This document shows, piece by piece, positions 1 through 3,000 of a stretch of 7,608 nt of DNA. The stretch spans positions 1 to 7,608 of the forward strand of contig JAITRB010000001.1 of NCBI GenBank assembly GCA_031288595.1. The letters are read 5' to 3'. This stretch comes from Puniceicoccales bacterium. Lineage in GTDB: Bacteria; Verrucomicrobiota; Verrucomicrobiia; Opitutales; JAIRLG01. Every line of letters starts with the position of its first letter. Position 1 is the first letter of the stretch. Position numbers: made by a program.

Positions 1-3000
1 TCAGAAAATCTCCTCTTCTAGCAGGAAAATTTTCTCGGTGATGCTGGAATTTCCCGATGGCGGATGATCCACTTGGCCAGTTTTTTAAAGAGAGGAAAGG
101 CGAGGCGCATGCCCCAGGCGATACCGCTCTCCATCTGGGCATCGTCCACCACCACCGTGATGAGGATCTGCGGAGCCTCCATCGGGAAAAATCCGCTGAA
201 GCTGGCAATGTGGTGCTCCTGGGAATAACGGCCCTCGATCAACTTCTGGCTCGTGCCGGATTTGCCGGCGCAGCGGACATGGGCGATGAGCATTTTTTCA
301 GGATTGTGCAGCGCTTCACGCACGAGACGGACGGTGGCGGGCGAGAGGATTCGGCGCCGGATTTCCGGACTCGGGTGCAGGATCTCCTCACCGGAGTCCT
401 CCATCACGGCGCTGAGAACCCGCGGGCGCAGGAGATAGCCCCCGCTGGCCAAGACGCCCATCGCCTGATGCACCTGCAGCGGGGTCGCTGCGAGGGCATG
501 GCCCATCGGCAGGCGGGTGATGCTCAAAGAGTCCCAGCGAGACGGCGGATGCAGGATTCCACTCACCTCGCCGTCGAAAGCATAGCCCGTCCTCTCGCCG
601 AAGCCGAAGAGCTGGGCCGCCGCGTGGAGCCGCTTTGGGCCGAGTTGCAGGGCGATCTGAGCGACTCCGCGATTGCTGGAACGGGAGAGGATCTCCATCA
701 CGCCCAGGCGGCCCATCGGGCGGTGATCCCGCGGGAGAGGATGTCGCCGTCCGCCGAAGTCGACGCTTTCGCGGGAACAGTCGAAAATCTGCTCTGGCCG
801 CAGCACCTGCCATTCCAGGCCCAGCGAGATCGGAACGATTTTAAAGACCGACCCGGGTTCATAGGTGTCGGTGACAGCGCGGTTCCGCAGGTCATCCGGC
901 GCGGCCTGGGCATAGGCACTGGGATCGAAGGACGGGCGATTGCCGAGGGCCAGCAGCTCTCCAGTCGTCGCGTCGCTGACCAGCACACTCATCCCCTGCG
1001 GATGATGGCGCTGTTCCCAGCGATCCAGCAGTGCCTCGACGGCGTTTTGAATGAAGATGTCCAGGCTCAGGAAGACATTCGCTCCATTCTGGGGAAGGAT
1101 CTCGAAGTGGCGAAACTGGGCCAGTTCGCGGCGGCGGCCATCGCACTCGGAGTTCAGACAGCCCTCGTGTCCTTTGAGAAAAAAGTCCAGGGCGTGCTCG
1201 ACACCTGAGATCGCCTGGCCCTCGCGGTTCACGAAGCCGATCACGTGGCTGGCAACGTGGCCAGAGGGATAGACCCGCTCCGATCGCCGCAGGCCATAGA
1301 CGCCCCGGATGCGCAGCTTCTGCAGCGCCTCATGGGCCGATTCATCCCTCAGTGTGCCGAGCTGCTTCCAGCGCAGTTTTTTCCTCTTCCCATTTTTCAG
1401 AACATGCCGACGCGTCATGGCCGCCTGGATGTCTTCCAATCCGATGCCCAGCAATTCCGCCAGATGTGGCCAGAGGGGCTTGTCCTCTTCAGGACGGGCG
1501 GCAAAGGGATCGATCCCCACTTCGATGAGCGGCTGCGTCAGGGCCAGCACCACGCCATTGCGATCCAGAATCGCGCCACGCTGGGCCGCCAGTCCTCGGG
1601 ATACCTGGCGCGTTCCGTCGACAAAGGGCCGGTAGTGCTTTTTCCGGAGAATGCTGTAGAAATAGAGCTTCCACGCAATCCATCCGTAGAGCACGAGGAC
1701 CAGAAGGGAAAGGAGAAACGCCCGCCGGCTCGCGGTGTGGTGCCAGGAACGGAGCATGGGCCGATCGGCCCTTCTTAGCGAAAAATATTCCTGACGTCAA
1801 ACCCATAGCCGATGGGGAAAATTTCCCCCACAACTTCTCTTCCTGGGACTGAGAGCTCCGCGCAGAATTGAGGGAGCTGGGGAAGTTTTTTCGAACAGGT
1901 ATTTTCTAGGGCGTCGCCTTTGCGCGGAGGGTAAGGCAAAAGGCCTTGCCCTCCGCGCGGGCCCGCGCAGCGGGCGGAGCCCGAAGGGCTCCAAAGGCGG
2001 CGCCACGCTAAAAATTTTCGCTTTCCCCCATCAGGCCTTACACTGCCCCTTTCAGAGACTATCCTCCGAGTCGTAGGCCCCAGGGCTCCTCTTCGCATGG
2101 GACCTCTTGGTCTCGCCACGAGAGGAATGTCCACTGCTCTCATGGCGTTTGCCGGAGACCAGTTCGTCCCGCTGGCGGCGGAGACGCTCCTGCTCCAATT
2201 CCAATTTCTGCCGCTTAACCTCGTTCTTCAGTTCCTGCAGCTCCTCCTCTTCCCGCCGTTTCCGCTCCTTTTCTCGGCGGTGCAGCTCGGCCTCCTCCCG
2301 AAGCTTCTGCTGGCGGTAATAGTTTTCCTCTTCCCGCCGCTGTCGAGCAAGGGTATCTTGCTCATCTCCGACGTGATGACCCAGTGCTGCTCCACCGAGT
2401 CCTCCGATAACCCCTCCCAGCGCTGCCCCACCGGCCCCACCGTCGATGGCGTAGCCGATGCCTGCACCGGCCGCTGCTCCCAGCGCACTGCCACCCAGGG
2501 TCGAGCTCGTCTTGTCACAGCCGCTTAGGAGCAACGTTCCCAGGCACAGCAAGCCCGCCGTTTTCAAAAAATCAGCCTTCTCCATATTGGGGTGGTATGG
2601 AAAAATATTCCGCCCCTTCTTCAAGCTCGAAAATCCCCCATTGGGTTCAGGGGGCTCTCCGGAAACCTAGGCAACCTGCTGAGAATCTGGGGGGTGACCT
2701 GTCGTCCCCACGTGGATCCTGGGCGTGCTGTATACGCGTTATTTTCACCGCCTTTGGAGCCCCAAGGGGCTCGGGCCCGCGGCGAAGCCGCGGGCCCACC
2801 GGGGCTGGGGCGAGGAAATAAAATTTCCTCGCCCCAGCCCCGCAAAGGCGGCCAAACCAAGAGAAGATGAGAAGCGCAGCATGATCTGGAAAAATCTGAA
2901 ATGATCTGGAGAAGGGAGGAAAGGGCGGGAAAAGGCTTGCCAGGAAAGGACGAAAGCTCTAAGACACAGAACCCATGTGCGGGATTGTGGCTTATATCGG

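Follow-up and report, generated by a model that had tools for sequence, protein, structure and literature searches.

Two four-way-junction elements upstream of an ftsI-like gene and of glmS are probably ordinary copies of a genus-restricted palindromic repeat family

The window analyzed in this work, a 7,608-nt stretch of DNA from a Puniceicoccales bacterium, carries two highly structured elements, here called A and B, one upstream of an FtsI-like penicillin-binding protein (PBP) gene and the other upstream of glmS. This position raises the question of whether they are regulatory leaders of two peptidoglycan-pathway genes or members of a dispersed repeat, and the initial annotation had kept both readings: REP/BIME- or MITE-like palindromic repeats bracketing a lipoprotein gene, or cis-acting leader structures. 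Our results indicate that A and B are probably two ordinary members of a repeat family confined to the genus, whose units are branched DNA palindromes with a four-way junction; this would be a non-coding and non-autonomous mobile DNA, whose position beside ftsI and glmS is incidental.

Folding confirmed that at both sites a closing stem surrounds three abutting hairpins (Table 1). The same four-way junction was obtained on both strands of A and B with RNA parameters (z -6.1 to -12.2; 0/200 shuffles equal) and with DNA parameters (z -6.7 to -11.8 against shuffles). Read on the minus strand, element A has its parts in the canonical order (closing stem, hairpin 1, hairpin 2, long arm, closing stem). 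The stop codon of the lipoprotein-like ORF precedes it by 52 nt, and the PBP start (1757, minus strand) follows 152-157 nt after it. Element B lies in a divergent spacer, 124 nt from the start of the lipoprotein-like ORF and 123 nt from the glmS start at 2975, and the gene distances first reported for both elements were right. Hairpin 2, usually of 7 bp, reaches 11 bp in B through a palindromic GGC/GCC addition at its tip; the nearest sibling of B in the genome (contig C5:4177-4282) shares this extended hairpin and has a related long arm. The covariance model R1 matched A at 1907-2007 on the minus strand (74.9 bits, E 1.1e-15) and B at 2741-2858 on the plus strand (70.5 bits, E 1.5e-14). The two had been described as an inverted pair, and indeed an exact 15-mer is shared in reverse complement (1986-2000 vs 2748-2762, 100%); they are however no special couple, since elements less than 1.5 kb apart in this genome are in the same orientation in 9 cases and in opposite orientation in 5, with a single pair less than 300 nt apart. 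No 3' T-run follows A or B on either strand, in agreement with the U-tract reported missing, and a terminator scan of the region called neither element, its sole terminator-like match being a weak one at 2723-2737.

Table 1. Coordinates of elements A and B, of their parts and of the neighboring genes in the window
Feature	Position	Strand	Remarks
FtsI-like class B penicillin-binding protein gene	18..1757	-	Pfam Transpeptidase (E 4e-52), PBP_dimer; outside elements
Element A	1910..2004	-	full family member; fold and covariance model R1
Element A, closing stem	1910-1921 / 1993-2004		
Element A, long variable arm	1922-1937 / 1943-1958 (1922..1958)		16 bp, 5-nt loop, 94% complementary
Element A, hairpin 2	1961-1975		GCCCGC-GCA-GCGGGC, GNA triloop closed by C:G
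Element A, hairpin 1	1976-1992		GGAGCCC-GAA-GGGCTCC, GAA loop
Glycine-zipper lipoprotein-like ORF	2052..2624	-	Pfam Gly-zipper_Omp, TraT, both under curated cut-off; outside elements
Element B	2748..2851	+	full family member, canonical order; fold and R1
Element B, closing stem	2748-2756 / 2843-2851		
Element B, hairpin 1	2757-2772		
Element B, hairpin 2	2773-2797		11 bp, GAA loop
Element B, long variable arm	2800-2819 / 2823-2842 (2800..2842)		20 bp, 3-nt loop, 100% complementary
CTTGCCA block	2936..2942	+	sole block upstream of glmS kept in all four species of the genus
glmS	2975..4825	+	Pfam SIS, GATase domains; outside elements

The host has a small termite-gut Verrucomicrobia (Puniceicoccales) genome of 0.78 Mb (G000), in which a profile search combined with folding counted about 126 elements totaling 12.1 kb, which corresponds to 1.5% of all its DNA and to about 11% of the intergenic part. 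In a genome of ~0.8 Mb one would expect junk to be purged, yet this family takes up about one tenth of the intergenic sequence. A regular expression combined with folding identified 45 copies with the A/B core. The covariance model gave at least 64 matches in G000 and at least 64 in a sister genome, G001, and none in 59 further genomes from the order; the family is present in all four genomes of the genus. An exact pattern search was positive in 4/4 genomes of the genus (22, 59, 33 and 113 copies) and, among 185,579 species, in two Puniceicoccales metagenome-assembled genomes (MAGs) only. The elements are 85-115 bp long (median 96-106 nt), and 121 of 124 copies (census 126) have exactly three inner hairpins and a closing stem. 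The latter measures 12-17 bp and is conserved within subfamilies, with the inner core CGCCTTTG/CAAAGGCG and compensated variants. Each copy has two short conserved G+C hairpins, with triloops closed by C:G, and a third arm of 13-22 bp that is almost perfectly paired and nearly unique in sequence, so that a sequence-conserved core is combined with an arm that differs from copy to copy.

In the leader reading, A would belong to the 5' leader of ftsI and B to that of glmS, and both would sense or respond to a cell-wall signal. The orientation of A and B, which is the same relative to the peptidoglycan-pathway gene downstream of each, fits this idea, and so does a third genome of the genus, G003, where an element with the orientation of B precedes glmS by 119 nt. 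However, the approximately 126 copies have unrelated genes as neighbors, occur in every type of spacer and face either way (62 in tandem, 35 in convergent and 28 in divergent spacers, gene contexts being approximate as they come from a codon-usage-scored gene set with gap filling). Orientation relative to transcription is random (34 vs 28 copies), and the wobble pairs described below show no strand bias. The PBP-lipoprotein-glmS synteny is the same in G001, but both spacers are element-free there, and in G003 the PBP gene is not preceded by an element. Moreover, the blocks that are conserved upstream of the two genes lie between element and start codon: at 1795-1810 for the PBP gene and, for glmS, the CTTGCCA block, which is downstream of B, 38-47 nt before the glmS ATG, and is present in the element-free spacer of G001 too. 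An Rfam scan of the entire window with E values up to 1 gave no match, including no glmS ribozyme. Two hand-read promoter candidates (TTGCCA-17-TAAGAC and TTGACG-17-TAAGAA) fail a consensus sigma-70 scan, which found no promoter between 1650 and 3050, and count as conserved blocks only. Since A and B do not stand out within a family of about 126 copies, they are not gene-specific RNA switches, although the family itself is unusual; copy number, contexts and the comparison with G001 and G003 all contradict the leader reading, which we consider highly improbable. Wide scatter over unrelated contexts is also the outcome that the initial annotation had set against a regulator. There is thus no new glmS or ftsI riboregulator at this locus, and annotation of A and B as leaders or small RNAs would mislead.

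The pairing itself points to DNA. About 99% of the pairs are Watson-Crick and 87% of the bases are paired, and G.U pairs number 56 on one strand and 45 on the other among about 5,260 pairs; pairs that are almost all Watson-Crick, with G.U equally rare on both strands, indicate a DNA-level palindrome and not an oriented RNA. GNA triloops and their complement TNC are about equally frequent across the family. Both sides change at 29 of the 38 pairs, a covariation score reached by 0/500 shuffles and with much lower values in slid controls. Conservation of structure over sequence, proposed from A and B in the initial annotation, is therefore real; the covariation is the mark of a palindrome that is being maintained and not of a gene-specific RNA, and because pairing is kept on both strands the constraint bears on the DNA palindrome and not on an RNA of one polarity.

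A perfect palindrome would also fold equally whichever strand is transcribed, and the copies might act as RNA in either orientation, as U-tract-free terminators, as 3'-end stabilizers against exonucleases or as insulators. Such roles have been proposed for the REPs of E. coli. The location of the copies is in part consistent with this: 97 of 125 are downstream of at least one gene, and among spacers of at least 150 nt occupancy is highest in convergent ones (42%, vs 35% for tandem and 30% for divergent). The in-place retention with compensatory changes reported below would be expected as well. On the other hand, copies are found in proportion to spacer length (54/25/21% of intergenic bp being tandem, convergent and divergent), and the 28 copies in divergent spacers are about as many as the intergenic share predicts. 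The flanks are T-rich on the 5' side and A-rich on the 3' side, the reverse of a bidirectional terminator. In tandem spacers, G.U pairs are as frequent in the sense as in the antisense strand (32 vs 28), and selection on RNA only would tolerate G.U but not A.C. Finally, long arms are often palindromic through their center, with AATT, GGCC or AGCT "loops", which is typical of DNA palindromes. We therefore judge an RNA-level role unlikely. Other RNA identities were rejected: an intrinsic terminator, because of the flanks, of A and B being uncalled and of the 28 divergent copies; and a tRNA-like cloverleaf, a retron msr/msd or a guide-RNA "barcode", because of the loops of 3-4 nt, the lack of a reverse transcriptase and the absence of targets for the arms.

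Comparison with the relatives showed that copies, once in place, are kept. Each of the 11 G000 copies that could be tested has its ortholog in G002, the closest relative, with a pooled identity of 83%, when the adjacent spacer is at about 52% and the flanking genes at 75-89%. Compensatory double changes have occurred in place at orthologous G000/G002 copies, and the long arm of A is kept, with changes, in its G002 ortholog; the contig of G002 ends within the ortholog of B. Such 11/11 retention at coding-like identity exceeds what selfish DNA alone predicts and suggests a host-level constraint. The elements might thus be DNA structural sites that serve the host, as cruciform or four-way DNA bound or processed by HU/IHF, gyrase, RuvABC or Xer-type recombinases, mobility being their origin only. 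The retention beside unalignable spacer and the equal constraint on both strands agree with such a role. Furthermore, this genome has at least two sequence-unrelated families with the same stem-plus-three-hairpin shape, and, of site-specific recombinases, only two Xer-like tyrosine recombinases were found throughout the four genomes. The copies nevertheless show no positional regularity and no preference for a spacer type, and G001 does without them where A and B would be. From one sister genome to another, copy numbers vary several-fold, and single lineages have had bursts of their own (about 113 near-identical copies in G003, and a subfamily named TGCC in G002), as selfish DNA would behave. 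Host-serving structural sites are, in our opinion, not a probable explanation of the family.

The evidence for mobility comes from nested copies. In G002, a sibling of the TGCC subfamily is nested in the hairpin-1 loop of the ortholog of A, and likewise in the ortholog of the G000 copy at C6:59075. Among 15 TGCC copies sampled, 5 occupy this loop at the identical position and in the identical orientation, with the junction GGAGCCC-TTC^[GGGGC-TGCC...GGCA-GCCCC-AAAY]^GGGCTCC. Two further nested insertions occupy the tips of long arms, and one of these is in G000 (C18:480-660). Outside the elements the G000 and G002 spacers are too diverged to align, so exact junctions come from nested insertions only; at the two insertions with known empty sites no clear target-site duplication is seen, the left junction being merely ambiguous by 0-3 nt (GGG). 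One subfamily therefore performs a precise, oriented "homing" into the hairpin loop of another, for which the empty site is known in a sister genome. New copies thus probably enter at single-stranded hairpin tips or after T-runs, always in one orientation, as would be expected of a single-strand DNA mechanism; this might rely on a Y1/HUH-type transposase acting in trans or on copy-choice template switching. The inserted copies then stay put, and some benefit might preserve their pairing on both strands. For these reasons, the family might offer an unusually direct handle on the movement and persistence of palindromic repeats, which is rare among dispersed bacterial repeats.

No intact transposase was found in the four genomes of the genus by a search for Y1_Tnp, IS110 DEDD and TnpB, the DDE and rve families lying outside this search. 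The Y1 transposase family PF01797 has no match in G000, G002 or G003, in a set of MAGs that are 68-93% complete. It has 8 matches in G001, where the two that were translated look IS200-like and contain in-frame stops, and no element lies beside the match at 3 of the 4 loci examined. TnpB occurs as fragments in G001 only, and IS110 is absent from the four genomes. The burst lineages G002 (68% complete) and G003 (83% complete) show no Y1_Tnp, TnpB or IS110 transposase. In these incomplete assemblies, no autonomous insertion sequence with matching ends was found, only the decayed IS200/IS605 remnants of G001.

The REP/BIME- or MITE-like nature first suggested for A and B is thus right in kind, given about 126 copies in all contexts, bursts and nesting, while the idea that they bracket the lipoprotein gene is unsupported; the lipoprotein-like ORF itself is kept in G001-G003. 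REP, BIME and REPIN sequences are associated with RAYT transposases of the Y1, HUH type (Ton-Hoang et al. 2012, PMC3333891; Bertels & Rainey 2011, PMC3116915; Di Nocera et al. 2013, PMC3733652), and genomes with CGTC REPs are reported often to lack a dedicated transposase (PMC3733652). Like these, the present elements are high-copy, strictly intergenic, G+C-rich palindromes with compensatory pairing, subfamilies and lineage bursts; their insertion is compatible with single-strand DNA hairpins, and no intact transposase was found with them. In contrast, a REP consists of one imperfect hairpin of 20-40 bp, whereas the elements described here are closed four-way junctions of 85-115 bp with four helices, one arm of which is hypervariable. 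GTAG/CGTC tags occur in the 15-nt flanks at chance level (observed 1-7, expected 3-6 per 126 copies), close inverted doublets of the REPIN/BIME type are not seen, and no RAYT was found. Bacterial long-hairpin MITEs of the Correia, ERIC, RUP and bcr1 types (reviewed in PMC3184786) are similar in size (about 100 bp), in their terminal inverted repeats, to which the closing stem corresponds, in being non-coding and intergenic and in having tens to hundreds of copies. The present family differs from them by its interior of three abutting hairpins instead of a spacer or one long imperfect hairpin, and by insertion into hairpin tips; neither a parent insertion sequence with matching ends nor a clear target-site duplication was found for it. 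It therefore extends REP/MITE-like repeats to a closed, branched palindrome of four helices.

Single-strand transposition of IS200/IS605 and insertion sequences that target REP loops (Tobes & Pareja 2006, PMC1525189; IS110-family ISPpu9, PMC12288879) share with our elements the fixed orientation, the defined point in a hairpin, no obvious duplication and the preference for palindromic repeats. Here, unlike in these systems, the inserting unit is a 90-nt non-coding palindrome, in genomes where Y1/TnpB are decayed and confined to G001 and IS110 is absent. Two further systems resemble the family in shape. The T-shaped inverted terminal repeats of parvoviruses exist in flip and flop forms and are nicked by the HUH Rep protein, their branched shape being recognized by this enzyme. 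They too have a closing stem with small internal hairpins, and inverted arm forms likewise coexist in G003, where the long arm is inverted in 4 of 20 correctly oriented copies; they are however three-way junctions at the ends of linear viral genomes, whereas our elements are four-way, dispersed in the chromosome and without coding sequence. Integron attC sites, single bulged hairpins beside cassettes and an integrase gene, are recognized as folded single strands. Structure rather than sequence is conserved in them as in our family, which has no integron integrase context.

The long arm is the most variable part of the elements. At two orthologous sites it is entirely replaced and the remainder kept, and such replacement in place is unexplained by simple insertion and decay. 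The four-way-junction shape itself, which several sequence-unrelated families of the genus have in common, might be what is recognized, with spread that requires no dedicated transposase (by template switching at hairpin tips, or through Xer-like recombinases or RuvABC), retention as cruciform-forming DNA in a reduced symbiont genome, and a long arm that behaves as a swappable or flippable cassette of fast turnover; we hold this variant to be rather unlikely. Exchange of arms between copies was considered as the source of the replaced arms, and was rejected because only 17 of 7,503 arm pairs are similar and no donor was found. Genes and terminators do not seem to provide the arms either, with no 16-mer matches outside the elements in the genome. 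The four apparent exceptions look like family members missed by the census, and one of them lies in an element rejected by the parser.

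The architecture claimed for elements A and B in the initial annotation, a four-way junction, was borne out by folding. The interior of both elements comprises a short GAGCCC hairpin (hairpin 1), a GGCCCGC hairpin (hairpin 2) and a long arm, joined by unpaired linkers of 0-2 bases, and this holds on both strands. Z-scores ranged from -6.1 to -12.2 with RNA parameters (both strands) and from -6.7 to -11.8 with DNA parameters, and no shuffled sequence folded equally well under either set. The 15-mer said to be common to A and B in reverse complement is an exact match.

Coordinates of genes and repeat elements in the window and of same-shape repeats elsewhere in the source genome (G000; C, contig)
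Feature	Position	Strand	Remark
FtsI-like PBP gene	18-1757	minus	
Glycine-zipper lipoprotein-like ORF	2052-2624	minus	
glmS	2975-4825	plus	
Element A	1910-2004		closing stem around three hairpins
Element B	2748-2851		closing stem around three hairpins
First same-shape family	C6:56830-56921, C6:66925-67014, C6:63973-64064		G000
Second same-shape family	C19:14113-14224		G000

A and B belong, as ordinary copies, to an unusual family of branched palindromic DNA repeats restricted to this genus. The source genome is a MAG of 783,735 bp in 20 contigs (91% complete), of which the window is the entire 7,608-bp contig C13. A search with the closing-stem core followed by a folding test yielded 45 copies in this genome, and a profile built on the conserved 5' half, again followed by folding, raised the total to 126 (12.1 kb), found in every type of spacer. 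The copies represent 1.5% of the genome and, by rough gene calls, ~11% of its intergenic DNA. Exactly three inner hairpins were present in 121 of 124 profile-derived copies (median lengths 15, 17 and 39 nt), and subfamilies are distinguished by compensated changes of the closing stem (CGCC/GGCG, CGTC/GACG, TGCC/GGCA, CTGTC/GACAG, CTGGC/GCCAG). A covariance model derived from 43 copies gave at least 64 matches in G000, at least 64 in G001, another genome of the genus, and none in 59 further genomes of the order. Each of the four genus genomes contains the exact pattern (22, 59, 33 and 113 copies); elsewhere in the order it occurs three times, singly, which is no more often than a reversed-pattern control. 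Across one genome per species (185,579 species), a 27-base pattern was found only in two Puniceicoccales bacterium MAGs, Pcl387_bin38 (G002) and Ct408_bin121 (G003), and Pcl387 is a gut sample of a lower termite (bioRxiv 10.1101/2025.08.05.668610). A literature search found no published description of such branched palindromic elements, and the family is apparently undescribed so far. By rough gene calls G000 is ~85% coding with ~111 kb of spacer, a low density for a reduced 0.78-Mb genome, and the repeats make up only about a tenth of this spacer DNA.

It had been proposed that A and B are cis-acting leaders of the PBP gene and glmS. This reading is not supported, since both elements are absent from G001, A is absent from G003, and an Rfam scan of the window gave no match. 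The PBP-lipoprotein-glmS order is kept in G001 and G003; elements are missing from both spacers in G001 and from the spacer ahead of the PBP gene in G003. One element lies 119 nt before glmS in G003, oriented as B and with an arm of the type of G003's own burst. The closest relative, G002 (83-89% identity), has orthologs of A and B; a nested element splits the A ortholog, and a contig break cuts the B ortholog. Upstream of glmS a single block is conserved across the four species, CTTGCCA (2936-2942), positioned downstream of B and before the ATG; another conserved block, at 1795-1810, is found between A and the start of the PBP gene. The closeness of A and B to cell-wall genes is incidental.

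In alignment A1 both sides change in 29 of 38 pairs (286 cells), none of 500 shuffles reaches the observed score and slid controls are far lower; thus, pairing is maintained. Watson-Crick pairs account for ~99% of ~5,260 pairs. G.U pairs number 56 vs 45 by strand (in tandem spacers, 32 sense and 28 antisense), and the two element orientations with respect to transcription stand at 34:28. The triloops of hairpins 1 and 2, closed by C:G in 97-98% of copies, are GNA or the complement TNC at about equal frequency, and many long arms are palindromic right through their centre. Copies are spread over tandem (62), convergent (35) and divergent (28) spacers, intergenic DNA being split 54/25/21%, and their flanks are T-rich on the 5' side and A-rich on the 3' side. 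Taken together, strand symmetry, central palindromes, spacer spread and flank polarity point to a constraint on the DNA palindrome rather than on RNA of one polarity. The flank polarity is also the reverse of that of a bidirectional terminator.

Each of the 11 G000 copies flanked on both sides by alignable sequence has a G002 ortholog in place. Pooled identity between these genomes is 83% for the elements, and flanking genes are 75-89% identical; adjacent spacer reaches ~52%, a downward-biased control as it includes only BLAST-unalignable spacer. Compensatory double changes occurred in place, for instance at C19:52684 (GCCCGC...GCGGGC in G000 vs GCCCAC...GTGGGC in G002). The orthologs of C6:52234 and C6:48215 kept the core with an entirely different long arm, and other copies show palindromic growth at a tip, as in hairpin 2 of B. 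Nearly all G000 long arms are unique (17 similar pairs among 7,503), and no match to them was found elsewhere in G000. Across the 123 G000 long arms, those at 1922-1958 and 2800-2842 among them, the 5' half averages 71% purine and exceeds 50% in 107 copies, so that either strand reads 5'-purines-loop-pyrimidines-3'. Because unbiased arm-to-arm correction is unable to reduce the rate of substitution, conservation at a coding-like level suggests selection on pairing. That a host-level DNA role keeps the elements in place is a live rival explanation, consistent with this conservation.

Comparison of G000 and G002 gave exact empty and filled insertion sites. At the A locus and C6:59075 of G000, the empty hairpin 1 reads GGAGCCC-TTC-GGGCTCC in canonical orientation, and the filled G002 orthologs read GGAGCCC-TTC-[GGGGC-TGCC...GGCA-GCCCC-AAAY]-GGGCTCC. 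Among 15 sampled G002 copies of the subfamily with the TGCC/GGCA stem, 5 have inserted at this very point of different host elements, all in one orientation, and one more lies in a long-arm tip. Long-arm tips also hold another element in the G002 ortholog of C19:62115 and a TGCC copy at C18:480-660 of G000. TGCC copies that stand alone have a T-run in front of them and GCCCC-AAAA as their final bases. The nested insertions show no clear target duplication (junction ambiguity at most 3 nt). These nested and free-standing sites indicate that new copies enter in a fixed orientation at single-stranded hairpin tips or T-rich sites, a pattern expected of single-strand (Y1/HUH-type) transposition or copy-choice template switching, by either of which the family might spread. 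In G003 a recent burst gave ~113 near-identical copies, which carry an additional conserved 5' flank, and the long arm is inverted (flip/flop pattern) in 4 of 20 correctly oriented G003 copies. Five G003 loci (L102, L106, L108, L111 and L113) have more than 100 nt of flank in common on both sides, the right flank continuing into the start of the left, which suggests tandem ~330-nt units with one element each.

Searches of the four genus genomes found, for Y1_Tnp, only IS200-like pseudogenes, all in G001, for TnpB only fragments in G001, and for IS110 nothing; two Xer-like tyrosine recombinases are present in all four. Two of these G001 loci (L093, C45:17339-17698; L094, C55:1314-1610) are IS200-type TnpA genes with in-frame TGA, TAG and TAA stops. 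Short TnpB zinc-ribbon fragments lie elsewhere in G001, and no other transposase remnants were seen in the genus.

The other initial reading, a REP/BIME- or MITE-like repeat, is supported as to kind. REP/BIME/REPIN elements and hairpin MITEs are the closest kin of the family, with which they share copy number, intergenic habit, compensatory evolution and a probable single-strand biology. However, REPs are defined by a single 20-40-bp hairpin, whereas the unit here is a stem with three hairpins; the family lacks the REP end tags GTAG and CGTC and does not form REPIN-type inverted doublets. No RAYT was found in the genus genomes, nor a parent insertion sequence as for MITEs, and no MITE-type target duplication is clear. 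At least two further G000 repeat families, unrelated in sequence to A and B, have the identical shape of a closing stem and three abutting hairpins, and the first (C6:56830-56921) has at least 8 copies in G002 at 89-98% identity. Given these sequence-unrelated families of one shape, production or recognition seems to act on the shape itself.

Some further features of the window were observed. The 12-mer GAAAAATATTCC, a candidate promoter or operator motif, is exact at 1780-1791 and 2600-2611, both ~15-35 nt upstream of minus-strand start codons (PBP and lipoprotein genes), and recurs with one mismatch at 4834-4845; related A+T palindromes resembling GGAAAATTTTCC are found repeatedly in spacers of the window and of G002. 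Direct repeats of ATGATCTGGA, spaced by 10 and 20 nt, lie between B and glmS (2881-2920), their conservation in G002 not being obvious. Finally, a 515-aa plus-strand ORF (6064-7608) is truncated by the contig end. Codons are used in it in a way unusual for G000 (log-likelihood -15, the PBP gene and glmS scoring +98 to +130), its sole Pfam match is a faint one to Anthrax_toxA, below cut-off (E 2.9e-4; 21 bits vs 25), and the gene is possibly foreign or evolving fast.
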